A DNA stretch of 62,630 bases, counting the filler. It is 7 parts of 7 records of this genome, joined end to end, with 100 filler letters (N's around TTAATTAATTAA, not from the genome) between each part and the next. Parts side by side here need not be neighbours in the genome. Positions count along the whole stretch, not along the records: positions 13,723 to 23,487 come from SRR31156797_46812; 6 more parts are not named here. The stretch is one strand, 5' to 3'. A program made the position numbers and the translations under genes. Shown piece after piece: positions 1,997 to 55,720 of the stretch (positions are counted from its first letter, which is position 1; each line of letters begins with the position of its first letter). The notes under the pieces were generated by a model. The model was not told the origin of the DNA. It saw only the letters and a list, made by a program, of their open reading frames with translations, and ran no database searches.

Positions 1997-3322
1997 TTAG
2001 ATGGACAGATACTGCCGCTGCTCCCTGGCAGAGATATGAACCCTGTCATCTTCCCATTCCTGAATCTTCAGTGCCATGAAATTGTCATAGAGTTTTTCGC
2101 CCAGCACATCCTTCAAAAACGAACTGGTTTCCGCTTCCACCAGGGCTTCATAGAGGGTGCGGGGTAAAAACCGGTCGTCCCACACTTTCATTTTGTAATC
2201 CCGTTTATAGGTGCTGCCCGAGTCCGGTGTGGCGGGTGGCAGCTGCTCCCGGATGCCCTGGAGCCCCATGGCAATGAGGGTCGCCATCTGAAGATAGACA
2301 TTGCCCGCCGGATCGGGGTTGCGCAGCTCGATCCGGGTGGCCTGGGGACTGGTGGTGTAGGGCACCCGCACCATGGAGCTGCGGTTGCGAAACCCCCAGC
2401 CGCGAACGATGGGCGCTTCTTTTTCCACCACATAGGCTTTGTAGGAATTGACCGTGGACGCCATCACCACCGAGGTCTCCCTGGCATATTTCAAAATGCC
2501 GGCAATGAACTGGCGGGCCAGGTCGCTCAGGTTATGATCGGCATCGGCATCGTAAAAGATGTTGTTGCCGTCCTTGTCCTGGATGGACAGGTGCATGTGA
2601 AATGCGTTGCGGTTGTATTCCTTGAACGGTTTGGGCATGAAGCTGGCGTAATATCCGTTTTCCTGGGCAATCCGCTGGGCAATGTAGGTAAACAAAAGGG
2701 TTCGGTCGGCTGCATTGACAGGGTCGGTGCATTCAAGGTTGATTTCATGCTGTGAAGGTGTGACTTCATGGTGGGCTTTTTCATACACAATGCCGCACTG
2801 TCCAAGCACATCGGTGATCTGCTGGCGAATGACCTGCCCCCGGTCGTGGGGGGTGGAGTGAAAATACCCGGCCTTGTCCGAATGGACATCGGAGGGAAAC
2901 CCGTTTTTGGTTGTCAGGGCGAACTCATCCCCGTTCAGAATGAAAAATTCGTGCTCCGGTCCGACAAAGAAGCGGAAACCAAATTCCTCCCGGGCGGCCG
3001 TGACCATATCCTGGAGAATGTTCCGGGGATCCACCGCTGCGGGCGCGCCCTCTTCGTTGAGGACATTGGCGATGAAAAAACCCACGGTTTCATCGGAAAA
3101 GGGGATGTTGCGAAGGGTTTGGGGCTGGGGCATCAGGATTCGGTCGCTGTGCTCCACATTGGCAAAGCCGGCAATGGAGCTGCCGTCAAACCCGACGCCG
3201 TTGTCGAAAATATCTTTGATTTTGTGTTTGTTGACCGACAGGTTCATCAGCCGGCCGTTTAGATCAGTAAAAAATAGCTTGGTACAATCAACGTCTTTGA
3301 GGTGACTGTCTAAGTCGTCCAT
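1997..3322 (-). CDS. glnA: Glutamine synthetase type I family protein
   Basis: FDGSSIAGF, GPEHEFF, HHEVTPSQHEI, FMPKPF, EAP..WG.RNRSSMVRVP, RIELRNPDPAGNVYL. Start set to ATG 3322 after AGGAG. Confidence 0.85.
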   Translation of the reverse strand: MDDLDSHLKDVDCTKLFFTDLNGRLMNLSVNKHKIKDIFDNGVGFDGSSIAGFANVEHSDRILMPQPQTLRNIPFSDETVGFFIANVLNEEGAPAAVDPRNILQDMVTAAREEFGFRFFVGPEHEFFILNGDEFALTTKNGFPSDVHSDKAGYFHSTPHDRGQVIRQQITDVLGQCGIVYEKAHHEVTPSQHEINLECTDPVNAADRTLLFTYIAQRIAQENGYYASFMPKPFKEYNRNAFHMHLSIQDKDGNNIFYDADADHNLSDLARQFIAGILKYARETSVVMASTVNSYKAYVVEKEAPIVRGWGFRNRSSMVRVPYTTSPQATRIELRNPDPAGNVYLQMATLIAMGLQGIREQLPPATPDSGSTYKRDYKMKVWDDRFLPRTLYEALVEAETSSFLKDVLGEKLYDNFMALKIQEWEDDRVHISAREQRQYLSI

Positions 3323-4145: not shown

Positions 4146-4264
4146 AGGCGGAAGCCTGTCGTCAGTCTGACCAATCCCCATGCTATTTTTTTGGGGGGCG
4201 CATCACGCCACCGGGAACTTTACCACCTTCCATTGACCCTTGGTCGGAATGAAAACATTTGTTC

Positions 4265-4292
4265 TTGACAATGTGGTTCGCATACGTAATAT
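4265..4292 (+). promoter_or_regulatory. Putative sigma70 promoter of the marR-dehydratase operon
   Basis: TTGACA-N16-TAATAT upstream of a GGAGG RBS. Confidence 0.45.
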
Positions 4293-8190: not shown

Positions 8191-9492
8191 TCAAGGGGTT
8201 TTCTTTTCATTATCCTTTTTACCCGTCAGATCCGGCAGAAATCGGGCGGCAAGACGCGCCGGGTGCACCACGGTTAAGCCTGCGGCGTCATCAAGAGATC
8301 CCCCCAGGTTTATCCGGCATACCGGACAGTCGGTCACCCAGAGCTTGGCCCCTGTGGCTTTGGCATTGTTCACTTTTTTCTTTGCAATGCCCCTGGACAC
8401 TTCCGGATATTCATAGAAAAAGGTACCGCCTCCACCGCAGCAGGAATCCATATCCAACGCCGGTATATATTCAACACCCTTTAGTGCATTCAAAAGGGCC
8501 TGGGCGCTTCCCGGAGCGGGCATATGATTTCTCAAATGACAGGGCTGGTGATAAGTGACATGTATCCCCTCGTGATTTCGGGGAAAACCTTCGGGCCGGG
8601 CATGGGCCATAATAAAAGTGCTGATATCCACCACTTTCTCCGCCACACGATTCGCCGCCTCCTGATCCAGGCCAAATTCTTTTGCAAGCCCGGGATAATC
8701 ATTTTTCAATGCAGCACCGCAGGTGGGACAGTCAACGATGACGGCATCAATACCCTGGGCATCCAGGCAGGCAAGGTTGGTGTTGACATTGTTTTTTACC
8801 TCTTCCCGGCCGCCGTGGAAAAGCATGGGAAGACCGCAGCAGGTCTGGGTTTCGGGGATGACCACCTCAACCCCCATGTAGCGCAGAATATCCAGGACCG
8901 CAAAGCCGGTGTCATCAAAAAGATAGTTGGTGGCACAGCCTGTAAAATAGGCCACCCGGCCATATTTCAGAGCGGGAACACCTTTTGATTTCTGCCCGGG
9001 CATACGTTCCGTCGCTCTCCGGGCCGCTGTCCTGAACGGCACTTTATTCAAAACAGGAAACTGTTTTAACGCGATGTTGCCCAGCCGGTATTTTGAAGCA
9101 AACACCTTAGGAATAATTTTCTGGGCCATTCCGGCCGCACCCGCCGCCATCCGGATTCGGGACTCCTTTGCCAGAAGATAGACCAGGCTTTTGATCTCAG
9201 GTCTATCCCCGTGGTCCCGGATCATCTGTTCGCGCATGCGCACATACCGTTCGGGATGGTTGATGCCCGCAGGGCAGATATTGGCACAGCTGCCGCACAT
9301 CAGGCATTTGGAGATAATATCCTTGAGCTTTTCAGAGGAACCCAGCTTATGGTCTGAAAAAAAATCAATGAGCTGTATCCGGGCTCTTGGGGAGGCATCC
9401 TCGGTGCCCTGGGCCTGATATGTCGGGCACACAGACAGACAGAACCCGCACTTGTTGCAATTTTGTCCGTATGAATCAGCCATATTACACAA
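8191..9492 (-). CDS. glcF: Fe-S oxidoreductase subunit, GlcF-like (2x4Fe-4S plus two CCG domains)
   Basis: CNKCGFCLSVCP, CLMCGSCANICP, YFTGC, TCCG, YHQPCHL, SCCGGGG; overlaps the glcD end. Confidence 0.85.
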   Translation of the reverse strand: MCNMADSYGQNCNKCGFCLSVCPTYQAQGTEDASPRARIQLIDFFSDHKLGSSEKLKDIISKCLMCGSCANICPAGINHPERYVRMREQMIRDHGDRPEIKSLVYLLAKESRIRMAAGAAGMAQKIIPKVFASKYRLGNIALKQFPVLNKVPFRTAARRATERMPGQKSKGVPALKYGRVAYFTGCATNYLFDDTGFAVLDILRYMGVEVVIPETQTCCGLPMLFHGGREEVKNNVNTNLACLDAQGIDAVIVDCPTCGAALKNDYPGLAKEFGLDQEAANRVAEKVVDISTFIMAHARPEGFPRNHEGIHVTYHQPCHLRNHMPAPGSAQALLNALKGVEYIPALDMDSCCGGGGTFFYEYPEVSRGIAKKKVNNAKATGAKLWVTDCPVCRINLGGSLDDAAGLTVVHPARLAARFLPDLTGKKDNEKKTP

Positions 9493-13722: not shown

Positions 13723-13723
13723 C

Positions 13724-14629
13724 GTGGTTTTTGCACTCCCCCTTGACCAGGAAAAGATTGAGCGATTCCTGAAAAAGCAGGACTTTTCCGCGCACTGCCT
13801 GGATAACGTTCGCACCAACACCCTTGCCAGCGGCATCGCCCTGGAACTGGCACGGTTTCTGGAAATGAAGGGGTATGCTGCCGTTCCGGTGGAATCCAAC
13901 TTCGTCTACCGGAAAGACACACCGAGGGGATTGCTTGACGAAAAACCGCCCATCTCCCATCGTTACCTGGCCGTTCGCGCCGGTATCGCTTACTTCGGGC
14001 TGTCCGGCAACGTTATCCGAAAAAAAGAAGGCGCCGCCATCATTCTGGGATCCGTGGTTACGGACGTCCAATTGACGCCCACCGACCCGCTCCCTCCCGA
14101 AGGGAACTACTGCGACACTTGCGGGTTGTGTCAGGCCGCCTGCGCCTCGGGCCTCATGCACCCGAACGAAAAGGCCACCGTCACCCTGGGGGGGGTGGCT
14201 TTTTCCTATGCCAGGCGGCAGAGCTACAACCGCTGTGACTACGTCTGCGGCGGGTTTACCGGGCTGTCCAGGTCGGGCAAGTGGTCCACCTGGTCGCCGG
14301 GCCGGTTTTCCATTCCGGAAAAAGACGCAGAATTTCTGAATGCCATACGCAGCACCGTCAAGGCATACGCCTTTCGGCCCAGAGCCGGCATCGGCTTTTA
14401 TAACGCTCTCCTGCCGGGCAACAAGGGGCAACTCACCTGCGGTCATTGCCAGCTCATCTGCCACCCGGACAAGGGCATTCGGAAAGAGCGTTTCAAAATG
14501 CTGACGGGCGCGGGCGTGGTCATCCAGTTGGAAGACGGATCGTTGAAGGCTGTTGCGCCCGAAGAAGCCCGGGAATACTTGGCTGCCATGAGCCCGGAAG
14601 TACGGACGTTGTATGAACGCATAACCTGA
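13724..14629 (+). CDS. Epoxyqueuosine reductase / reductive dehalogenase-like cobalamin 4Fe-4S protein, 5'-truncated
   Basis: SHRYLAVRAGIAYFGLSGNVI..GAAIILGSVVTD, CDTCGLCQAAC, CGHCQLIC. Confidence 0.75.
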   Translation: MVFALPLDQEKIERFLKKQDFSAHCLDNVRTNTLASGIALELARFLEMKGYAAVPVESNFVYRKDTPRGLLDEKPPISHRYLAVRAGIAYFGLSGNVIRKKEGAAIILGSVVTDVQLTPTDPLPPEGNYCDTCGLCQAACASGLMHPNEKATVTLGGVAFSYARRQSYNRCDYVCGGFTGLSRSGKWSTWSPGRFSIPEKDAEFLNAIRSTVKAYAFRPRAGIGFYNALLPGNKGQLTCGHCQLICHPDKGIRKERFKMLTGAGVVIQLEDGSLKAVAPEEAREYLAAMSPEVRTLYERIT

Positions 14630-14690
14630 TTGAGGTTTGCTTCAAAGGTTCCGGCAGCAAGCGGATTCATAAGTACGGAGGAGAAAGAAG

Positions 14691-15740
14691 ATGACACCTA
14701 AAGAACGCGTCATGAATATGTTTGAGCGAAAACCCATTGACACCATGCCGGTTTTCAGTGGATTGTCCATGCTGGCCAAACCGGCCCTGGACCAGGCCGG
14801 ATACGCCTTTTCGAGTATTCATGCGGATCATGAACGCATGGCATGGGCTGCCATTCGATCTTCAAAGATGATGGATGTTGATGGCATCGTGGTACCCTTC
14901 GACATCACCATGCAGTCGGAGGCGCTCGGAAACAAGGTCAATTTCTATGAAAATTCTTCGGACCCGGTTTTCCCGACAATCCCTGAAAAAATCTGGGAAA
15001 CCCTGGATGATGTGGAGATCCCGGACAATGTTCTTGATCTGGGGAGACATCATCTCATTCCAAAAGCGATGGAAATCATCAAACGGGAAGCGCCGGAATA
15101 CCCCATCGGCGTATGGCTCCGGGGTCCCTTGACGCAGTTGGGTCAGATTTTAGAACTGGAAACGGTTCTGAAAGCGCTCTTTAAGGAGAAAGACAAGATC
15201 GGTGCCATCCTGGACAAAGTGAGCCACATGGCCATTCAAATCGGCCGGGCCTGGCAGCGGGCGGGTGCGGATTACATTACGTTAAGCGAGCCCGGTGCCA
15301 ATGCGGAAGTCCTCCCCCCGAGGATGTTCAAAAAACTGATCCAGCCAAAGCTAACGCGAATCCTTCAGGCATGGGATTCTCCCAAAGTCCTGCATATTTC
15401 CGGTGCAAGCGATCCGCTGGTGGAAATGATGGGCCAGTGCAAAGCAGATGCCATCGGTGTGGACATCAAAAATTCGCTCTCTGAAACACGCGAAAAACTG
15501 GGCACTGATATGCTTCTGTTCGGAAATTTTGATGTTTACCATCTTCCCTGCAACCCGGAGACCCATGTCGATCAGGTTGTGGAAACCATCAAGGAGAACA
15601 TCGACGGGGGGGTCGACGCGGTCTGGCCCGGATCGGATTTGTGGCCGGATATCAAACCGGAAAACATTCGGGCCATCGTTGACACCGTACACGACTACGG
15701 TAGGAAACCAAGCCCTGCCGTGGGAAGAATTGATCCATAA
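14691..15740 (+). CDS. MtaA/CmuA-like methylcobamide methyltransferase (URO-D superfamily)
   Basis: MTPKERV, VPFDITMQSEALG, GPLT, AGADYI..EP, LHISG, LFGN, WPGSD. Confidence 0.82.
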   Translation: MTPKERVMNMFERKPIDTMPVFSGLSMLAKPALDQAGYAFSSIHADHERMAWAAIRSSKMMDVDGIVVPFDITMQSEALGNKVNFYENSSDPVFPTIPEKIWETLDDVEIPDNVLDLGRHHLIPKAMEIIKREAPEYPIGVWLRGPLTQLGQILELETVLKALFKEKDKIGAILDKVSHMAIQIGRAWQRAGADYITLSEPGANAEVLPPRMFKKLIQPKLTRILQAWDSPKVLHISGASDPLVEMMGQCKADAIGVDIKNSLSETREKLGTDMLLFGNFDVYHLPCNPETHVDQVVETIKENIDGGVDAVWPGSDLWPDIKPENIRAIVDTVHDYGRKPSPAVGRIDP

Positions 15741-15774
15741 GTTCTGTTCCATGGGGGCTGCTTTTTCCTCCCTT

Positions 15775-16764
15775 TCAGGAGATCCAGATCAGGGGAAGGG
15801 CGGCAAACCCCATTGCGACCCAGGCGGCACCGCAGAGAAGCCACATGGTTTTCACGATATCCGAGGGATTCCCATCCCCAAAGCCTCCTCCCAGCCACGG
15901 TTTTTCCTTACGGACATCCCCGTAGGTTGTGGGTCCGGCCAGGCGAATCCCCAGTGCTCCCGCCACAAAGCTTTCCCCATGGGCCGAGTTGGGGGACTCA
16001 TGTTTCAACCGGTCTCGAATGCCCGTTTTGATTCCTCGAACGCCGTCGCACCCGCATAAAATGCTCCCCAGAAACAGGAAAATAAAGGAGAGCCGCGCCG
16101 GAACAAAATTCATAACATCATCCAGTTTCGCACCGGCCCACCCCAATGCCTCATATTTCTCATTTTTGTAGCCCACCATGGAATCCATGGTGCTGGCAAC
16201 CTTGAACACCAGCATGGCCACAAGGGCAAAAATAACCGGGTCGAAACCCACAAGCCGACCCAACAGACCCCCTGCCAGATACCAGAAAAGGGGGGAAACA
16301 AACCCGTCCACAAAATTCTCGGCCAGGGTTTCAACCGCGGCCCGGCAAACCCCTTTTTCATCCAAAACCGTCACATCACGACCCACAACCCTTGAAACCC
16401 TCTGCCGGGCTGCTTGGAGATCCCCCGATTCCAGGGCATCCACCACCGGGTTCAGATGCACCGTCAAGTCCCGAAGTGCCAAGCAAGAGAAACACACATA
16501 AACCTCGAAAAGAAACGCCAGGGGTCCATAGATTTGGTTTAGTATCCGGGATAACAGCAAAAAAACAATGAGCGTTACGCCCATGAGCCCCAGTGCCAGG
16601 ATGATTCCGCCCGTCCGGCTCGCCATCCCCAGCTTTCTCAACCATTTCTCCCCGAGGGAGATACCGTGCCCCATCAACCGGATGGGATGGAAACGGTATT
16701 CCGGGTCCCCCAGAAAAACATCCAGCAGAAATCCCAACCACAACACCATAATGCATTCAAACAT
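15775..16764 (-). CDS. cbiB: Adenosylcobinamide-phosphate synthase CbiB
   Basis: LGDPEYRFHPIRLMG, VGRD, RAAVETLAENFVDGFVSPLF, STMDSMVGYKN, AKLDDVMNFVPARL, HESPNS. Confidence 0.95.
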   Translation of the reverse strand: MFECIMVLWLGFLLDVFLGDPEYRFHPIRLMGHGISLGEKWLRKLGMASRTGGIILALGLMGVTLIVFLLLSRILNQIYGPLAFLFEVYVCFSCLALRDLTVHLNPVVDALESGDLQAARQRVSRVVGRDVTVLDEKGVCRAAVETLAENFVDGFVSPLFWYLAGGLLGRLVGFDPVIFALVAMLVFKVASTMDSMVGYKNEKYEALGWAGAKLDDVMNFVPARLSFIFLFLGSILCGCDGVRGIKTGIRDRLKHESPNSAHGESFVAGALGIRLAGPTTYGDVRKEKPWLGGGFGDGNPSDIVKTMWLLCGAAWVAMGFAALPLIWIS

Positions 16765-16776
16765 GAATATTTCCTT

Positions 16777-17547
16777 TTATCGCAGCCAGAACCAACCGGT
16801 TACGGACATAATTTGATTTCCCCAGGCGGCGCAGAACAACAACAAAGCCAGGCTCACCAGTTCATTGGCGGTCCCCAGAAGGTCCCCGGTAATACCCCCG
16901 AACTGTTTCCGGCACCTTTTACCGTAAATGATGGTAAAACCCCATGCCAGAAAGAAAAGGCCCACGCCCAAGGGTCCGAAGAGCAGGCAGACCATCAGAC
17001 AGAGACAATGGGAAAAAAACCGGTGTTCCCTGGAAGCACCGGCCACAAAAGGACCCGCCATCCCTTCCCCGGCACGGGCATAGGGAAGGGCGGTGGTAAG
17101 GGCCACCAGCACGTCCCTGGATATAACGCTGACCGCCAGTATCCATATGAGGGAACCCGTTTTCATGAGTTGTGAAAATATGGCCACCCGAAGGACCAGG
17201 TCCAGTATCAGAGCCAGAGATCCGAAAGCGCCCACGGATACGTCTTTCATGATGGCCAGTCGCCTTTGACGGCCAAACCCGCCGATGGAGTCGGCCCAGT
17301 CGGCCAGTCCATCCATATGAAGACCGCGGGTCAAAATTATTTCCAGGGCAACCATCAACACGGCACCCCCCAACGGCCATGGGGAAGGCAACATCCACTG
17401 CCAGAGGGAACCGAATAAAAACAGGATAAGCCCCATCCCCAACCCTGTCGGAACAAACCAATAAAGGCTGTCCGATAGGTTTTCATTTTCACCGCCCCTG
17501 CACGGCAGAATGGTCAGGGTTCGGATAGCTGATCTGAGTCCTTTCAT
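16777..17547 (-). CDS. cobS: Adenosylcobinamide-GDP ribazoletransferase (cobalamin synthase)
   Basis: LTRGLHMDGLADWAD, IMKDVSVGAFG, FGGITGDLLG. Start set to ATG 17547. Confidence 0.95.
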   Translation of the reverse strand: MKGLRSAIRTLTILPCRGGENENLSDSLYWFVPTGLGMGLILFLFGSLWQWMLPSPWPLGGAVLMVALEIILTRGLHMDGLADWADSIGGFGRQRRLAIMKDVSVGAFGSLALILDLVLRVAIFSQLMKTGSLIWILAVSVISRDVLVALTTALPYARAGEGMAGPFVAGASREHRFFSHCLCLMVCLLFGPLGVGLFFLAWGFTIIYGKRCRKQFGGITGDLLGTANELVSLALLLFCAAWGNQIMSVTGWFWLR

Positions 17548-17798
17548 GAAACGGTCCTCGCCTTTAAGAAATAAAAATGCTCCATTCATATGACAGATGC
17601 ACCCTGGAATCAACCCCGATTCTGCTTTACAGGTGAAATCCTTTCCATTTGTGAAATTCAGGTGTTCGCCTGACCGCAAAAAGTGTACCGTAAAGCGACT
17701 TGACCTTTCACTATCAGAAAGGTATCAAATCCCAGGACCCGGTGAATGACGGGATGCAAAACGGGGTGTTTTTCAAAGACCTCTAAATGGGAAGAAGC

Positions 17799-19040
17799 AT
17801 GGACAATCACAAACCAGTGATCAGGAACCTGACGGAAGGGTTTTCCGAGGGTGAAAGATCCGTGTCAAAAAGCCGTGAGAAGGGTGCCATCAACTGGGAT
17901 CAGCTCATTCTGGGCATGAAAAGGACCACCAAGGAATTTATCGAAAATGTCCTGGAAAACATCATCGAGTCCATCGTGATCACGAATCTGGACGGATACC
18001 TGGTCTTTTTTAACAAATATTCGGAGGAGATCTTTGAATTTGAGGCCCGGGAAGTGCTCAATCGACACATCGTTATACTGGGCGTGAAAACCCCCGACGT
18101 TCTATACCACATTCGAAGGGATGAAACCTTTAACGGTGAAATCACGCTTAAAACCAAGTCCGGCAGATACTTTCCCGCCCATGTGAGGTGCGTTCCCCTG
18201 AGGGATGAGCGGGACAGGCCCATCGCCATGGTCGGGGTGGCAAGGGACTTGACCAAAGAAAAGGAAAAACAGCGGATTGACGACGAAATGAAGCGCCTGA
18301 AAGCGGAACTGTTTCAGTCTGAAAAGATGTCTCTCATCGGCACCCTGGCCGGTGAAGTGGCCCATGAAATCAATAATCCCCTCGGCGGCCTCATCATTTC
18401 GGTTCAAATGCTTCTGGAGGATATTGAAAAAGGGGAACTGGATCTCAAAATGGCCCTCGAAGAACTTCGGGGAATTGAAAATGACGCCCGACGCTGCAGA
18501 GAAATAACCCGAAAACTCCTTGATTTTTCTCGTCGTATGCCGGAAGGGCGAAATAATCTGGATCTTACACGGGTCATTGAAGACGCCCTGATCCTTGTTC
18601 AACGTCAGGCCGAAATCGAAAACATTTCCTTTTACAAAAAATACGCCCAAGACCTGCCGCCGGTCTGGGGAAATTCAAACAGTCTGCAACAGGTGATCAT
18701 CAATCTGGTCAAAAACGGTTGCGACGCCATGACGCAAGGTGGCCGGATTACCATTTCCACCCGAATTTCACATGTGGGAGAAAAAGAACCGATGATACGC
18801 ATTTCCATTGCGGATACCGGACCCGGAATTCCCCATGACCTTGTGGAGAAACTTTTTGACCCTTTTTTCACCACCAAGGAGGGGGGCAAGGGAACGGGCC
18901 TGGGTTTGGCCGTCAGCAAACGGATTGTGGAGGAGCAAGGAGGACGGCTCATGTGTGAAAACCTGGAAACGGAGGCCGGCGCCGTTTTTCACATTCTGCT
19001 TCCCGCTTCAAAGGCCCATAAGGCGGGTGGACGTCCATGA
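17799..19040 (+). CDS. PAS-domain sensor histidine kinase (NtrB-like)
   Basis: PAS domain, [10 protein letters not shown]-box, [32 protein letters not shown]. Confidence 0.95.
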
Positions 19041-20458
19041 CGAATAATTTCCGAATTCTGGTGGTGGATGATGAAGATTCCATGCGTAAACGGTGTGTCC
19101 GCCTTCTCTCCAGGCAGGGCTACCACGTGATCGGCGCCTCAAGCAGTCCGGCCGCATTGGATCTCATGCAAAAGGAAAGCGCATGGTTCGATCTATTGCT
19201 CGTGGATATCCGCATGCCCGGCATGGACGGCATTCAGTTGATGGAAAAGGTCAAGGCCCAACGGCAAACTGTCGAGGTCATCATCATGACCGGCTATGCA
19301 ACCGTGGAAACCGCGGTAAAGGCCATGAAAAAAGGCGCCTATGACTATCTTTCCAAACCCTTTGAAACGGATGAACTGCTCCACCTGGTGAAAAAAGTTG
19401 TTGAAAAACGGTCTTTGCAGCAGGAAATCAAGGAACTCAGGAACCAACTGAAGGACAGCCGTGAACATCCTCTGGTGTTCGGTAATTCCGAAGCCATGAA
19501 CCGGGTCATGCGGTTCATTGAAAAGGTGGCGCCCGTTGACTGCAACATATTGATCCACGGAGAAAGCGGCACGGGGAAGGGCTTGGCGGCCAAGGCCATT
19601 CACGCCCGCAGCAAGCGGGAAAATCAACCTTTTGTGGTGGCGGACTGTGCGGCCTTGGCCGGAAACATATTGGAAAGCGAACTTTTCGGGCATGTCAAGG
19701 GGGCTTTTACGGGCGCCCATGCGGACCGGGAGGGATACTTCCGAAAGGCCCACCAAGGCACGCTCTTTCTGGACGAAATCAGCGAAGTCCCCCTGGACCT
19801 GCAGGGGAAATTGCTCCGGGCCGTTCAGGATCAATCCGTGGTAAAGGTGGGCTCCGCGGAGGCATTGCGCGTTAACACGCGTATTATCGCCGCCACCAAT
19901 CGCAATTTAGAGGACCTGGTTGCACAAGGCCGGTTCAGGGAAGATCTGTTCTATCGGTTAAACGTGGCCGCATTGACCATGCCCCCATTAAGGGACCGAC
20001 GTGAGGACATCCCTTTGCTGGCAAGACACTTCCTGAAATGGTATACGGCCCGGCTCAACCTTGATCAAGTGGCTCTTCCGGACAAAATTCTGGACGTGAT
20101 GATGGCCCATAACTGGCCGGGCAATGTTCGTGAACTGGAAAATGCCGTGCAGCGCGCCCTTGTAATGGCGGATAACGGCGTCATTTCCGTTGAGGATTTA
20201 TTCCCATCCCGAGAAAGGAAAGATTCGGCCCCATTTAATCCTTCCGACCCCCCATACGGGAAAATGAGTTTTCAAGACATGAGACGGGAAGCCGTGCGCC
20301 ATTTCACCCAGCAATATCTGACCAGATGTCTCACCTTCCATAAGGGCAATATCACCAAGGCGGCAAAAGCCATGGGCATGCGCCGCACGTCCCTTCAAAG
20401 ACTCATCCGTCAAAGCGGCCTCAGCAGCCGGGACTTTAAGGGCCTCGGTAATAAATAA
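19037..20458 (+). CDS. Sigma-54-dependent response regulator (NtrC family)
   Basis: Receiver domain, GESGTGK, ESELFGHVKGAFTGA, LFLDEI, WPGNVRELEN, Fis-type HTH. Confidence 0.96.
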   Translation: MTNNFRILVVDDEDSMRKRCVRLLSRQGYHVIGASSSPAALDLMQKESAWFDLLLVDIRMPGMDGIQLMEKVKAQRQTVEVIIMTGYATVETAVKAMKKGAYDYLSKPFETDELLHLVKKVVEKRSLQQEIKELRNQLKDSREHPLVFGNSEAMNRVMRFIEKVAPVDCNILIHGESGTGKGLAAKAIHARSKRENQPFVVADCAALAGNILESELFGHVKGAFTGAHADREGYFRKAHQGTLFLDEISEVPLDLQGKLLRAVQDQSVVKVGSAEALRVNTRIIAATNRNLEDLVAQGRFREDLFYRLNVAALTMPPLRDRREDIPLLARHFLKWYTARLNLDQVALPDKILDVMMAHNWPGNVRELENAVQRALVMADNGVISVEDLFPSRERKDSAPFNPSDPPYGKMSFQDMRREAVRHFTQQYLTRCLTFHKGNITKAAKAMGMRRTSLQRLIRQSGLSSRDFKGLGNK

Positions 20459-20492
20459 TCGCCCGGGATTGCACCGAATGTGGGAAATGGGA

Positions 20493-21491
20493 TCATCCCT
20501 TCATGGCAATTTCTTCAAGGATGCGGCGATAAAACCTGTAACGGGTGAACGGAATGTTACTGCGGGGTCTGTCATCAAGGCAGGGAAGATAATGACCCTT
20601 TTCAAGCAGGCCCGGCACTGTTTCTTCCACAGCCTTTCGCACGGCCGTCTCATCCCGAGCCAGCGCCGTTGCGTCAATCCCCCCGATCAAAGCGACTTCG
20701 GCGCCAAATTGTCGGCGAAGTTTGGGATATTCCATGCGGGCACTTTGGATGTTACTGATCCAGAGGCCATTGATGCCGGCATCCATCAGAGAAGGCAGGA
20801 GACGCGTCAAGTCACCCCCCGTGGTACAGAGGATACGAAGCGGGATGTGATACTTCTCCAAGAGATTAATGACTTTCCGGTAGCCCGGTATGGCAAAACG
20901 CTTAAACATCTCAGGAGACACCAAGGATCCACTGTTGGACGCAATGGGTTCATAAAACGAGGCATAATCAACCGGCACCTTTGAAAGCACCCTCTCAAGG
21001 CAGACACAGTAAAAATCGATTGTTCTTTTAAGAAGGTCCTCCACCCTCTGCGGGCTTTCAACAAGCGCAAGGCAGGCAGAGAGCAGAGAGTCCCAATCTC
21101 CCACACCCAGCATCTGCAGAAGACCGCCACCCGACGCATCCACATAAAGGACCCGGCCTTCCTGATGAAGACGTTCGCTTCTCTCAGCAAAGCCCGTTGC
21201 ATAACGGGATCGTTGGTCAGGGTTGTAATGTCGTTTGAAAGAGGACGGGTCGTGGAGGAGATCCGACGCTTTTTGGAAAAAGGGGTAACTGCGGAGCATT
21301 AATCCCACGGAATGGTGCGTTTCCAGATTGAAAAACGTTCTAAAAGACTCCCGACGCGGCATTCCCTCCTTGACCCATCGCTTGAGGGTTTCTTCGTCGG
21401 GCTCAAGGTCGAAAAACGGAAACCGGTCGCCGCCACTGCCCGAAAGGGTTGCTAAAAACCGCTGTCTTTGGCTCATTTCATCCACGATCAT
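20493..21491 (-). CDS. URO-D/methyltransferase superfamily protein, divergent
   Basis: MSQRQRFLA, EPIASNSGSLVSPEMFKRF..PGY, LRRQFG..LIGGID, HYLPCLD. Confidence 0.75.
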   Translation of the reverse strand: MIVDEMSQRQRFLATLSGSGGDRFPFFDLEPDEETLKRWVKEGMPRRESFRTFFNLETHHSVGLMLRSYPFFQKASDLLHDPSSFKRHYNPDQRSRYATGFAERSERLHQEGRVLYVDASGGGLLQMLGVGDWDSLLSACLALVESPQRVEDLLKRTIDFYCVCLERVLSKVPVDYASFYEPIASNSGSLVSPEMFKRFAIPGYRKVINLLEKYHIPLRILCTTGGDLTRLLPSLMDAGINGLWISNIQSARMEYPKLRRQFGAEVALIGGIDATALARDETAVRKAVEETVPGLLEKGHYLPCLDDRPRSNIPFTRYRFYRRILEEIAMKG

Positions 21492-21629
21492 CCCCTGTCA
21501 TTTCTCAAAGATTTGAGGTGCTGCAACGCATGGGGTATCAGGCTAAAAAGTCCAGCAAGGCGTTGTTGAAACGCCCAACGGAACCTTCGCCAAAAAAAAC
21601 CCATCTTTGACGAAATCTTTTCATTTTTC

Positions 21630-21643
21630 TTGATTTAGGTCAA
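21630..21643. promoter_or_regulatory. FNR/Crp-family box upstream of a small Cys-rich gene
   Basis: TTGATTTAGGTCAA about 60 nt upstream of ATG 21706. Confidence 0.55.
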
Positions 21644-21705
21644 TTCATTTAACTTCCTTCCGGGTTAATGATGACACAAAATCAGGAAAAATGGAGGAAT
21701 ACATC

Positions 21706-21948
21706 ATGTATGACGCCTGTAGCCAAACATTTCAATCCGGGAAACAAATTGTGGATAAAATCAGGACCATGGGTTTTAACGTCAACCCCCTTGGCAAGGA
21801 ACTTGAGATTAAATGTACAAATTGTGACACGGTATTTCAAATGGCAACCATGGAATCACAATGCCCGTCCTGTAAAATGGTATATGGGGTAACACCCTGC
21901 CATTCCCATAGTGCGCAGTTTGTTAAAGCTGCCGGCGTAAATTACTAA
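21706..21948 (+). CDS. Small Cys/His-rich zinc-ribbon-like protein
   Basis: GGAGG RBS; MYDAC..KCTNC..QCPSC..GVTPCHSH. Confidence 0.8.
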   Translation: MYDACSQTFQSGKQIVDKIRTMGFNVNPLGKELEIKCTNCDTVFQMATMESQCPSCKMVYGVTPCHSHSAQFVKAAGVNY

Positions 21949-21983
21949 TGACAGACACGCGTACGGTGACTTTTGGAAGTATG

Positions 21984-23231
21984 CTATTTATTCATCATCG
22001 CTTCGATCAGCTCTATGGCTCGGGTAATGCCGTCTTCTTGTGCAATCTTCCGCGCAATCTCTCCAGCCCGTTCTCGGTAGGACGTCTTCCGGGTTAAATC
22101 TTCCAGTCCCCGTGCAAATCCGGCTGCTTTTATTCTCTTTAGAGACTGAGGTTTGGGCCCACACCCAAGAGAGCAGATACGGCGGCCCCAGTAAGGTTGA
22201 TCAAAGGCAGAGTGACAAATGAGCGTCGGGAGTCCGGCACGCAAACCTGCCGCCGTGGTACCCGCCCCGCCATGGTGGACAACAGCGCTGACGTACTCAA
22301 ACAGGGCATCATGCGGGGCGCCTTTGATCGCAAACATCGTCTCAGGCAGTTCCACCTCCTTTAATCCACCCCATCCAATGGCAAGTATCGCCCGAACATT
22401 TGCACGACGCGCCCCTTCAATTATTTCTTTGGTAAGCTTTTTAGGGTCCCATGACGGCATGGAACCAAAACCAATGTATATGGGTTTGTCTCCTGTCTTG
22501 AGAAACGCTGTGAGTGCAGCATCAGGCTGCCAATCCGTCCCTTCCTCCAAGAACCAGTAACCGGTTGTCTGAATGTTTTCCTCGGGATCATTTGGATATG
22601 GAATCAGAGCTGGTGAGGCCATACAAAGCTGTATGAAAGGACCCCCTTTTACACTGTTGATCGGCATGGAGGCGGGACTTTTTCCAAGCCCCAGTGTTTC
22701 TTTACGCCAACGGTTTATCATTTTAAAAAAAATCAACCGGGAAAAGATAAATGGCATGTACGAAATCCGGTTGAGCCTTGGCCCGAAATTACCCTTAAAT
22801 ACAAAAAACGGAAACGCTTTTGTCGGGAAGATCGGAAATGGCGCAGTACTGACGAGCGCTGCGCCTGTGGCCTCGGCAACATCGATAGCGCATGCAACTT
22901 TGGGATGATAAACGATTACGTCAGCGTCACGGGCCGACTTCCATGTGGCATCCAGGGTCCCGCGCATTAACGGGATGATGGTCTTCCGCCAGATCTTAAT
23001 TAACGTGAACGGATTGCCGGATAAAACCTCTCTTCCCTCGGGTGACTGCAGAAAAGCCTGCATATCAACACCAATAGAGCGAAACTCCAGCCCATGCCCC
23101 TCGACCCATGATGCGAAGTTGTCCGGGCACGCCAGCAAAACATCATGACCTCGAGTCCGAAGCGCCTTACCCAAAGCGATATAAGGTTGGACATCCCCTC
23201 TTGTCCCACTGGTAAGAATTGCAATCTTCAT
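21984..23231 (-). CDS. GT1/GT28-type glycosyltransferase (sterol glucosyltransferase-like), probable gene cassette
   Basis: GTRGDVQPYIALG, IYIGFGSM, VVHHGGAGTTAAGLRAG.P, DQPYWG. Confidence 0.93.
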   Translation of the reverse strand: MKIAILTSGTRGDVQPYIALGKALRTRGHDVLLACPDNFASWVEGHGLEFRSIGVDMQAFLQSPEGREVLSGNPFTLIKIWRKTIIPLMRGTLDATWKSARDADVIVYHPKVACAIDVAEATGAALVSTAPFPIFPTKAFPFFVFKGNFGPRLNRISYMPFIFSRLIFFKMINRWRKETLGLGKSPASMPINSVKGGPFIQLCMASPALIPYPNDPEENIQTTGYWFLEEGTDWQPDAALTAFLKTGDKPIYIGFGSMPSWDPKKLTKEIIEGARRANVRAILAIGWGGLKEVELPETMFAIKGAPHDALFEYVSAVVHHGGAGTTAAGLRAGLPTLICHSAFDQPYWGRRICSLGCGPKPQSLKRIKAAGFARGLEDLTRKTSYRERAGEIARKIAQEDGITRAIELIEAMMNK

Positions 23232-23257
23232 TTCGGTTTTTGCTTCACAGATTATTT

Positions 23258-23332
23258 GTATAACGCTTGGCTAACCCGCCACGCCCAGAGCGAGGAACGA
23301 GCGGCGGGTGTGGTCGGTGTTCAGCCACTTGT
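23258..23332 (-). mobile_element. attC: Integron attC site (R'' interrupted)
   Basis: Minus strand reads ..ACAAGT GGCTGAAC (L'') ... GTTAGCC (L') AAGC GTTATAC (R'). Extra G in L'', paired central stem, and R' lies 26 nt upstream of the GT start codon. Confidence 0.85.
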
Positions 23333-23413
23333 GTACGCCCGGCACGGGCGTGAACTCATGGGGTGTAAGTCCCCTGTGTGTGAATCCGGTTAATGAGTTT
23401 AAATCATTAGCCC
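23333..23413 (+). mobile_element. Group IIC(-attC) intron 5' fragment
   Basis: After TTGT| the sequence begins GTACGCCCGGCACGGGCGTGAACTCATGGGGTGTAAGTCCCC, matching class C intron 5' ends. Right end is approximate. Confidence 0.75.
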
Positions 23414-23456
23414 AAATACTAGTACTCTGTCATAACTGTAATGTCGTAAAGGTGCC

Positions 23457-23484
23457 GTCATTCCGGGCTTGACCCGGAATCCAG
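23457..23484. repeat. REP-like palindromic element
   Basis: GTCATTCCGGGCTTGACCCGGAATCCAG, hairpin ATTCCGGG/CCCGGAAT, at the contig end. Confidence 0.7.
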
Positions 23485-23487
23485 AAT

Positions 23488-23587
23488 NNNNNNNNNNNNN
23501 NNNNNNNNNNNNNNNNNNNNNNNNNNNNNNNTTAATTAATTAANNNNNNNNNNNNNNNNNNNNNNNNNNNNNNNNNNNNNNNNNNNN
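23488..23587. other. Artificial contig spacer
   Basis: N/TTAATTAATTAA/N. Confidence 0.99.
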
Positions 23588-55301: not shown

Positions 55302-55435
55302 GCGGGCGTCTCCCATCCCCTGAGTGTCGTGGCGGAGCCAATTTAACCGCTCGCGCGGCGCTGGCATAGACCGCCGACCTGTTTTTTACGCAAGTCCCGC
55401 CCCTTCCCTCATCGCGCCCAACGGACTATATTGAA

Positions 55436-55720
55436 GGGGTCGGGAAACCGACTATGGCGATAAACGCCTTATGGAATAAGCGTAGCGGACCCGGGGGCAG
55501 TACCCGGCGCCTCCACCAAACCTCTTTTTCCGCCGAAGGGCGGGATCGTTCAAGGGGGCGAACCAGGATCGACGCGCGTGGTAAAGGTAAGGTTTTTGCC
55601 CGGCATGGTACCGCCGTTATCGGGCCGATTCTACAAATGCCAATGATAACGAGGCGTTTGCTGTAGCCGCTTAGTCGGCAACGGGGTTCGGGGGGCACCT
55701 GGCAACAGAAGCCCCCCACT
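55436..55720 (+). ncRNA. ssrA: Two-piece (circularly permuted) tmRNA
   Basis: T-arm and CGCCTCCACCA (ends 55518) precede an intervening segment and GGGGGCG (55554; G3:U pair). Tag reading frame 55639-55674 encodes ANDNEAFAVAA*. Outer ends approximate. Confidence 0.93.

Follow-up and report, generated by a model that had tools for sequence, protein, structure and literature searches.

A chromosomal attC site split by a group IIC-attC-type intron 5′ end beside a glycosyltransferase gene in a Desulfatiglandales-like bacterium

Introduction

At the end of one metagenome contig, a hairpin that resembles an integron attC site lies between a glycosyltransferase gene and what looks like the start of a group II intron. 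This raises the question of whether the hairpin is an attC site that was invaded by an intron and, if so, to which gene the site belongs and whether the glycosyltransferase gene arrived as a cassette. An attC site is built on an imperfect L''/L' stem, with short unpaired spacers leading to the R box and extrahelical bases on the L'' arm, and its R'' box has the consensus RYYYAAC and is complementary to R'. In the available sections of PMC7923331, the R'' consensus is printed as RYYYACC, and group IIC-attC introns are described as inserting at R'' of the bottom strand, with the consensus TTGT/T and in the orientation opposite to the cassettes. Class C introns usually follow palindromes or terminators, an ability that the IIC-attC introns retain, according to the same sections and those available of PMC3001079. 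The latter also place the introns of integrons mostly in the last cassette. An earlier reading made from the sequence alone had proposed that R'' was split at the bottom-strand TTGT| by a decayed intron of this type, and that the attC site marked a stranded glycosyltransferase cassette with no integrase in view.

Results

The contig and its surroundings

The window, which is the whole stretch of DNA that was analysed (62,630 nt), consists of seven contigs with GC contents from 0.34 to 0.60, joined by six N linkers. The contig that carries the attC site, the intron end and the glycosyltransferase gene spans 13723-23487 and stops 155 nt past the attC site, where an N-TTAATTAATTAA-N linker follows (Table 1). 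In a repeat search, the linkers were the sole window-internal repeats, and the hairpin and the intron end were single copy in the window. The contig comes from an uncultured Desulfatiglandales-like bacterium of a sulfate-reducer-like lineage (the order of a Desulfatiglandales MAG). Synteny with the nearest available genome, G001, covered HemE, CobD, CobS, a histidine kinase and NtrC and ended at window positions 20458-20483; the syntenic G001 locus lacked the glycosyltransferase gene and its two neighbours. A 14,530-nt Logan contig, made by a different assembler but perhaps from the same reads, covered 22700-23483 with 0 differences from the window contig and stopped at 23483, within a multi-copy repeat. 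Sequencing runs other than X1 held a share of at most 0.26 of the stretch, in parts only.

Table 1. Positions of the features discussed, counted along the window
Feature	Position	Strand	Basis or remark
Rest of segment missing from the syntenic G001 locus	20484-21983	.	Synteny comparison
MtaA/URO-D-like gene	20493-21491	-	In the segment without G001 counterpart; family by profile search
85-aa CxxC ORF	21691-21948	+	In the segment without G001 counterpart
GT1-family glycosyltransferase gene, 415 aa	21984-23231	-	ORF; Pfam PF03033 (E 4e-16), PF06722 (E 6e-13)
26-nt leader, R' to glycosyltransferase start codon	23232-23257	-	Conserved with L005, L006, L010 and L007 (alignment A2, BLASTN)
attC	23258-23332	- (top strand)	Sequence, fold, two covariance models
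attC R' core GTTATAC	23258-23264	-	One deviation from GTTRRRY; sequence and R2 alignment
attC body: 5-nt spacer CAAGC, L' ...GTTAGC, variable loop, L'' GCT-G-AAC-A-CCG-A-CCAC..., 5-nt spacer AAGTG	23265-23330	-	Fold and covariance-model alignments
Final two R'' bases (AC)	23331-23332	-	Remaining R'' displaced by the intron
5' 90 nt of group IIC-attC-type intron (start of domain I)	23333-23422	+	Homology
Non-intron tail with REP-like palindromic repeat (~23456-23484)	23423-23487	.	Diverges from all canonical copies after ...CCCAAATACTAG
Artificial linker	23488-23587	.	N44-TTAATTAATTAA-N44 between unrelated contigs

Anatomy of the attC site

The arms L' GTTAGC(C) and L'' (G)GCTGAAC differ by one additional G on the L'' side. 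Three single-base bulges were found, all on the L'' arm (the 3' arm of the bottom strand), the first of them after a 3-bp stem base. In classical attC sites the first bulged base is a G on the bottom strand; here it is a C. Both spacers are 5 nt long, the same geometry as in 11 attC sites of G001 (alignment A7). The 3' exon lies off the contig, and AC (23331-23332) is all that is visible of an R'' box expected to be complementary to R'. The register of R'' matches that of intron-split attC sites from class 1 integrons and from G001 (GGCGUAC-ac-AA... in the R2 alignments; R2 is described below).

Intact relatives supported this register. The 44-nt loop core was 93% identical to an intact G001 attC site (L052, 9973-10051) that has both R boxes and lies in an array of eight sites. 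In this site, as in the homologous site of a second genome of the order, G199, and in that of a metagenome locus (L010, TCATAAC...GTTATAC), an R'' box occupies the position where the intron begins here. An alternative in which GGCTAAC/GTTCAGCC is an intact R box and the intron sits 6 nt outside the site was rejected on the evidence of these intact homologues and of the covariance-model register. The plain DNA fold of the hairpin was not significantly more stable than that of shuffled sequences (z -1.19, with 21 of 200 shuffles as stable), and a search of the window for the L'-spacer-R' pattern gave nothing above chance.

Two sets of homologous loci met at the R' core or within ~12 nt of it. 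Homology to other glycosyltransferase loci began, by BLASTN limits, at 23263/23264 (L007, L005) or 23276 (L006, L010), and homology to the G199 locus, 83% over attC plus intron, ended at R' (query 29-191, which is 23260-23422; alignment A10).

Covariance models of attC

Two attC covariance models were built from the integron arrays of G001. The first, R1, was trained on 11 attC sites, none of which resembles the site in the window. The broader R2 has 25 training rows, which include two attC sites with a window-like loop and one intron-split attC. The attC alignment was rebuilt from 11 sites since a MAFFT alignment of 18 had misplaced L' in the short ones. Two hand-written attC detectors were too noisy (the stricter gave 117 matches compared to ~63 in shuffled sequence) and served only for picking seeds, which were then checked by eye and with the models.

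R1 matched 23258-23336 on the minus strand with 15.5 bits (E 0.41 in 325 kb), its sole match in the window at E<=10 and a score that is persuasive only because it falls on the predicted site and strand. R2 scored this site at 28.5 bits (E 6.7e-5 in 146 kb), again as the sole match in the window, where the higher score is partly non-independent owing to the two training rows with a similar loop and the one with a split site. When run unfiltered on the 9.8-kb contig, R2 found the site at E 4.5e-6 and no second attC on 13723-23487; the next best candidate was 17572-17653, at 9.1 bits and E 0.71. Among the class 1 controls, R1 scored 39.3 bits for the cmlA5 attC and 31.2 and 24.1 bits for the intron-split dfrA14 and blaIMP-4 sites, and R2 had no match in 35.5 kb of non-integron G001 DNA (L013 plus L036). 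When applied to 13 other intron 5' junctions, R2 recognised an attC in the same register at seven and none at E<=1 at the other six, so an attC that R2 recognises does not adjoin every intron of this kind.

The intron 5' end and its tail

On the plus strand the junction reads CTTGT|GTACG at 23328-23337. The intron follows the bottom-strand TTGT (23329-23332), its first G is position 23333, and it continues as GTACGCCCGGCACGGGCG...GGGGTGTAAGTCCCC. Because the attC top strand lies on the minus strand, the intron is, as judged from the two orientations, antisense to the cassettes.

A BLASTN search with 23330-23487 against plasmids matched 353 records, all over the first 48-49 nt only (best 93.8%, E 7e-11). 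The six plasmid comparators that were fetched all had Rfam group II intron matches downstream of the BLASTN match. In G001, seven intron copies matched 23331-23422 at 83-98% identity, the best at 98% over 92 nt (E 5e-39). The bases that come next in the 98%-identical copies match Rfam RF02001, and copies homologous to the 5' 90 nt carry RF02001, RF01998 and RF00029 matches. In the window itself, Rfam models had no match in 23240-23487 (E<=10), in a 6-kb stretch, or in the whole window at the gathering threshold. The Rfam group II models start ~104 nt into the intron, past the part that is retained. The assignment to group II introns came from homology. The same 5' end was found at E<=1e-6 in 62 of 201 sampled genomes of the order of G001, and the summed contig depth in run X1 was ~1200 at the intron 5' end compared to 39.7 in the flank.

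The intron copy is truncated or interrupted, with 90 nt of canonical sequence and a REP-like repeat next. No reverse transcriptase or maturase ORF and no domains V/VI were found on the contig. The tail had a depth of ~850 in X1, and its repeat occurred at seven or more unrelated places in G001. Since the contig ends 65 nt after the canonical part, an element may instead have inserted into an otherwise whole intron, and the description of the intron as decayed held to this extent: the canonical sequence stops, by loss or by interruption. The copy as it stands is very probably incapable of splicing or moving.

The glycosyltransferase gene

The closest solved relative of the encoded enzyme was sterol 3-beta-glucosyltransferase (5xvm/5gl5, E 6e-62 over residues 2-409). 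The NCBIfam models for antibiotic-inactivating glycosyltransferases scored far below their cut-offs (Rgt 114.7 bits compared to 800, MGT 65 to 260 and Mgt 35.9 to 700), leaving the antibiotic substrate that had been suggested unsupported. The start codon lies 26 nt from R'.

The attC site had been taken for that of the glycosyltransferase cassette, but it is the 3' end of a missing upstream cassette, and the glycosyltransferase gene is the next unit downstream, starting with the leader and the TTATAC of R'. The favoured reading, at about even odds, is that this unit came in as a cassette or a portion of one and that it lost its own attC or never had one here. Its 5' boundary at G|TTATAC behaves like a cassette junction, with homology to glycosyltransferase relatives from 23263-23276 and homology to attC relatives ending at 23260. 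G|TTRRRY in the attC that precedes it is likewise where a classical cassette begins. The six metagenome loci with homologous genes (83-90% amino acid identity) share with the window the gene and at most 45 nt upstream, starting at R' or L'. They have no flanking synteny and four different downstream contexts, and R2 found attC matches adjoining the gene in these loci. Relatives of the gene stand within attC arrays or at their ends. Unlike a classical cassette, the gene has no 3' attC on this contig, and since a cassette is defined as an ORF followed by its own attC, it is not a cassette by definition here.

A plausible alternative, which we hold to be somewhat doubtful, is that the attC and the intron are as described and the glycosyltransferase is an ordinary chromosomal gene flanking the distal end of the array that never was a cassette. 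This would account for the missing downstream attC, and the class 1 gene in the same position, qacEdelta1, is not a cassette either. In two of the metagenome loci (L008/L009), the gene overlaps the upstream ORF, to which it is translationally coupled, and heads a sugar ABC-transporter operon, as an ordinary chromosomal gene would. Such a gene fits less well with its absence, together with two neighbours, from the syntenic G001 locus and with its sporadic occurrence. No close homologue was found in the 201 genomes of the order, where four had a match at E<=1e-60 and the best identity was 42%, and a first search of genome contigs had found no relative. It also leaves the start of homology at the R' core and the four downstream contexts to be accounted for. 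At L007, moreover, an attC lies downstream of the gene, with an R'' (GTATAAT) exactly complementary to the ATTATAC at the 5' boundary of the gene.

Other readings of the junction

Much less probable is that the hairpin is a terminator-like or REP-like stem-loop behind which a class C intron homed. Such introns usually follow palindromes or terminators (the available sections of PMC7923331 and PMC3001079), the fold energy of the hairpin is unexceptional, R2 gave no attC match at six of 13 comparator junctions, and the contig holds neither a second attC nor an integrase. A terminator or REP element would not be expected to be matched by both R1 and R2 at this site only and in the correct strand and register, to share its loop core with an intact attC of an eight-site array, or to have a homologue within the attC array of G199. 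The hairpin has no plus-strand gene ending ahead of it that it could terminate, the minus strand lacks a T-run behind it, and a terminator scan was empty there. An assembly chimera at repeated sequence is exceedingly improbable. In its favour, the intron end and the terminal repeat are multi-copy and the contig ends inside the latter. Against it, the Logan contig agreed with the junction, 4-9 differences over 50-65 nt separate the other copies from this one, which would leave no long exact words in common, and G199 has the same attC-intron junction independently.

Discussion

The split attC is confirmed as a genuine event, of an already well-described kind. The features given by the sequence-only reading for an R'' box split at TTGT| by a group IIC-attC-type intron are all present, both covariance models picked out the predicted site and no other in the window, and the matches exceed chance expectation. 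We consider it likely that the contig end is the distal edge of an integron array, that the attC is that of a lost cassette, and that the intron retro-homed into R''. The array would be either an integron's or an attC cluster that lacks an integrase, and the attC on the minus strand would belong to a cassette past the contig end. The intron would have recognised the folded bottom strand by its bulged stem-loop and a short IBS1, TTGT, and have inserted between the two T bases of the R'' GTT; insertion into the bottom-strand GTT would in itself set the intron antisense to the cassettes. The absence of an integrase from view, which had been read as a sign of a stranded cassette, is uninformative because the contig ends at 23487 and the integrase side would lie beyond. 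With its R'' box split, the attC should no longer be an integrase substrate, and its junction with the next unit would be frozen.

A further idea, speculative and rather unlikely, is that the intron stub acts as a lock. The splitting of R'' and the loss of the ribozyme and reverse transcriptase would permanently disable the last attC, freeze its junction with the glycosyltransferase gene and lead to domestication. The cassette upstream of the stub would be out of reach of an integrase for excision or reshuffling, and mobile cassettes would turn into fixed genes of the chromosome. An outward promoter reading into the glycosyltransferase gene might, in addition, come from the stub and the adjoining repeat. 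In PMC3001079, as far as its available sections go, P1out lies at intron positions ~66-119 in nearly all copies of its Table 3. The -35 part of P1out would lie past the truncation point here, and since a promoter scan of 21900-23487 found no sigma-70-like promoter on either strand, an outward promoter stays conjectural. If the stub does act as a lock, cassettes would be domesticated recurrently by this route, given that 62 of 201 genomes of the order carry the intron family and that arrays contain truncated copies.

The closest known parallel is found in class 1 integrons (S.ma.I2 / Kl.pn, described in the available part of PMC3001079). The group IIC-attC introns in the dfrA14 attC (OW968333.1) and the blaIMP-4 attC (NZ_CP021328.1) share the 5' end with the window (85-94% identity over 48 nt). 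They also share the insertion point in the bottom strand of R'' after (T)TGT and the antisense orientation. The layout is shared as well, with an intron in the last attC and a gene that does not look like a cassette on the 5'-exon side, the glycosyltransferase holding the position of qacEdelta1 behind the class 1 intron-split sites. Unlike the class 1 copies, the intron here has only 90 nt of canonical sequence and no reverse transcriptase or domains V/VI on this contig, a GT1 glycosyltransferase takes the place of qacEdelta1, and the host is Desulfatiglandales-like.

No new mechanism emerges from the locus, nor any evidence of an antibiotic-resistance function. What it adds to the known partnership of group IIC-attC introns and attC sites is an example on the chromosome of an uncultured, sulfate-reducer-like lineage, in an order where the intron family is common. 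It is also a concrete case for asking how cassettes stop moving, in which an attC split by a truncated intron is followed by a sporadic glycosyltransferase gene that begins at the recombination point but lacks its own attC.

The arrays of G001 and G199 hold the same intron family (83-98% identity) and attC sites of the same family as the one in the window, and truncated and ORF-less intron copies occur in them as well. They differ in having other cassettes after the attC and no close homologue of the window glycosyltransferase. G001 has four integron integrases above the TIGR02249 cut-off, compared to none in any of 14 control genomes. In G199, the homologous attC has its intron after TTGT and lies in an array of five attC matches and three introns, all of which are antisense to the cassettes. 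The G001 copies differ from the window in that they mostly follow GGT, not TTGT; at L038 the intron has the R'bs GCTAAC upstream, and the junction reads GT|intron|TAGC.

An attC site split by a group IIC-attC-type intron

At the right-hand end of contig 13723-23487, the GT1-family glycosyltransferase (GT) gene is preceded on the minus strand by the elements of an integron attC site. On the plus strand, which is the bottom strand of the site, CTTGT follows the stem-loop at 23328-23332 and GTACGCCCGGCACGGGCG... starts at 23333. The sequence-only reading had interpreted this arrangement as an attC split by a group IIC-attC intron; every motif that it named was found, and the observation as a whole was correct and careful. 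Such introns insert into the attC bottom strand at R'', with the consensus TTGT/T and in the orientation opposite to the cassettes (PMC7923331).

Features of the contig and attC matches in metagenome loci carrying GT relatives
Feature	Position	Strand	Remarks
HemE, CobD, CobS genes	contig 13723-23487
PAS histidine kinase and sigma-54 response regulator genes	contig 13723-23487
MtaA/URO-D-like gene	20493-21491	-
85-aa CxxC ORF	21691-21948	+
GT gene	21984-23231	-
attC R' (GTTATAC)	23264-23258	-	followed by 26 nt, then GT ATG
attC L' (...GTTAGC)		-	past loop; then spacer CAAGC
attC L'' (GCT-G-AAC-A-CCG-A-CCAC...)		-	after spacer AAGTG; then loop
Outermost part 5' of GT (...CGTAC/AC)		-	then spacer AAGTG
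L010 attC matches	822-908, 3179-3267, 4220-4275		a further weak match (11.6 bits) immediately 5' of GT
L008/L009 attC match	9147-9274		then 210-aa ORF, then GT
L007 attC match	257 nt past GT stop codon		R'' GTATAAT complements ATTATAC at GT 5' boundary

Two self-built attC covariance models both matched the predicted attC and no other site in the window. R1 was trained on 11 aligned attCs, none like that of the window, from G001, the nearest available genome, with a structure of seven R pairs and nine L pairs around a bulge. On controls it scored 39.3 bits for the cmlA5 attC, 31.2 for the intron-split dfrA14 site and 24.1 for the intron-split blaIMP-4 site; its sole window match at E<=10 was 23258-23336 on the minus strand (15.5 bits, E 0.41 for 325 kb). 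The second model, R2, used 25 hits for its rebuild and is not fully independent, because these included two sites with a window-like loop and one intron-split site; its only match in the window was 23258-23339 on the minus strand (28.5 bits, E 6.7e-5), and G001 DNA outside integrons (35.5 kb) gave no match. When the contig was searched with filters off, the attC site was recovered at E 4.5e-6 and the second-best match, at 9.1 bits, was noise. In the model alignment the first bases of the intron and AC were read as a pseudo-R'' (GGCGUAC-ac-AA...). Of 13 other intron junctions, seven, including those of both class 1 integrons, showed this register too, and six had no attC match. A plain test of the DNA folding energy of the hairpin was not significant, a result that counts for little beside those from the covariance models and from homology. 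attC sites follow an extrahelical-base rule, and a bulged stem-loop is reportedly required for intron mobility.

A BLASTN search of 72,556 plasmids gave 353 records matching 23330-23487 (80-94% identity, best E 7e-11), all limited to its first 48-49 nt. All six plasmid records that were opened had Rfam group II intron matches just 3' of the shared part, several of them with reverse-transcriptase/maturase ORFs. At the intron site of the window (23240-23487) Rfam gave no match; its domain I-IV model starts about 104 nt into such introns. The junction TTGT|GTACGCCC was common to all of these plasmid copies. Seven copies in G001 matched window 23331-23422 at 83-98% identity. The best-matching G001 copies continued from ...CCCAAATACTAG into CCGAAGGCAAGGG..., and G199, another genome of the same order, had CCAAAGG... 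at this point, while the window copy had TACTCTGTCATAAC... instead; only its first 90 nt (23333-23422) are therefore canonical.

The arrangement is that left by retro-homing of a IIC-attC intron, with the intron truncated after 90 nt. Such a stub would have lost both splicing and mobility. An attC whose R'' is interrupted would not be recombined, so the junction between attC and GT would be frozen. In nearly all copies in Table 3 of PMC3001079, the outward promoter P1out, documented for this intron lineage, lies on the complementary strand at intron positions ~66-119 (one outlier, 168-195), and the -35 element occupies the distal portion of this interval. The truncation removes this -35 part here, and a consensus scan found no sigma-70-like promoter. 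According to the same source, integron-borne introns mostly occupy the last cassette. Two of the six opened plasmid records are textbook cases, class 1 integrons with dfrA14 or blaIMP-4: the intron occupies the last attC in antisense orientation relative to the cassettes, with qacEdelta1 on the side of its 5' exon. The phenomenon is a known one in a new host lineage, and the intron family is common in that order, its 5' end being present in 62 of 201 sampled genomes at E<=1e-6.

Downstream of the stub, the tail at 23423-23487 contains a short palindromic repeat, CGTCATTCCGGGCTTGACCCGGAATCCAG (window 23456-23484), REP-like in look. It is dispersed over many unrelated places in G001 (loci L026-L033), is multi-copy in sequencing run X1 and ends the contig. 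In X1, the probable source, a 14.5-kb Logan contig equalled 22700-23483 without difference and stopped there, and summed depth, 39.7 in the flank, rose to ~1200 at the intron start and ~850 at the terminal repeat. It is therefore a repeat that broke the contig here, and the earlier remark that no integrase was in view says nothing.

Integrons in related genomes

A HemE search identified G001, a Desulfatiglandales MAG, as the nearest available genome (84% amino acid identity). Synteny spanned window 14688-20483, from HemE through the whole NtrC-like gene, and ended there; nothing in the 14 kb of G001 that follow corresponded to the final 3 kb of the contig, GT included. Across G001 the best GT match was 40% identical. 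Compared with the window contig, G001 carried a ~4.6-kb insert that separates CobS from the gene for the histidine kinase (L013 12835-17442 versus window 17549-17781). Four integron integrases scored above the TIGR02249 cut-off in G001, and none in 14 control genomes.

The G001 site at L052 9973-10051 had a 44-nt loop core 93% identical to the window hairpin. It was intact (TGCTAAC, 5 nt, bulged stem, 5 nt, GTTGGCT) and had an ORF on either side, both in the same direction, within a series of about eight such sites. The G001 intron copy in L038 still had the two parts of an interrupted R box, with GCTAAC upstream and GT|intron|TAGC. The G199 homologue of attC plus intron was 83% identical over 163 nt, with the intron beginning after TTTTGT; in its minus-strand array, three of five attC matches each lay 0-13 nt from a predicted plus-strand intron start. 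Both genomes were integron-rich (G001, L052 5964-15960 and L055 1712-19447; G199, L075 6630-14361). A hand-written detector gave ~8 and ~11 candidate attC sites in the G001 arrays, most confirmed by the models; the G199 array of five attC matches held three introns, and several intron copies in these genomes were ORF-less or truncated.

Origin and function of the glycosyltransferase gene

The attC precedes GT in the cassette direction (minus strand) and therefore closes a cassette beyond the contig end, so GT is the next unit. GT relatives 83-90% identical occurred in six metagenome loci, whose DNA homology to the window ran only from 23240-23276 to 21980-21996 and which had no flank in common with it at the protein level; one downstream gene was common to L006 and L008. 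Homology to the attC relatives stopped at ~23260. Both breakpoints thus coincide with the R' core or fall no more than ~12 nt from it, which is what exchange at G|TT would be expected to give. Among 201 genomes of the order no close GT homologue was found, four having a match at E<=1e-60 with identity <=42%. Against cassette status, the contig lacked an attC after GT in the filters-off R2 search, and in L008 GT has the look of an operon gene. We consider the chances about even that GT is a former or partial cassette; that it is a flanking chromosomal gene is possible but less likely. Over some 25 nt following the GT stop codon, a patchy motif, AAAAG..CGTA, was common to three loci (window 21940-21983; L006 1470-1530; L007 1800-1830). 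Its L007 version is GTATAAC, the complement of GTTATAC, and the motif may be a remnant of GT's own R''.

On a Candidatus Methylocalor plasmid (OZ026885.1, 1441-2935), a GT1 gene with the annotation gtfB has attC matches on both sides (2846-2935 and 1441-1503) and adjoins a IIC-attC-type intron. Its C-terminal half shows 37% identity to the window GT, and this gene does look like a complete integron cassette.

GT contains Pfam domains PF03033 and PF06722, and its best solved relatives were sterol 3-beta-glucosyltransferases (E 6e-62, full length). Of the antibiotic or lipid substrate proposed earlier, antibiotic inactivation has no support, scores against the Rgt and Mgt models being far under the cut-offs; a lipid or a sterol-like molecule seems the likelier acceptor.

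Several weak, far sub-threshold Rfam matches (Phe leader, opuB) on both strands of the AT-rich stretch 21590-21713, upstream of the CxxC ORF, are most likely due to chance. The seven contigs of the window (1-62630, 62,630 bases; joints N44-TTAATTAATTAA-N44) range in GC from 0.34 to 0.60, with 0.525 for the contig of the attC site. They probably come from different organisms, because the last carries an alphaproteobacterial-type tmRNA (55400-55720, 264 bits) whereas contig 13723-23487 is Desulfatiglandales-like.
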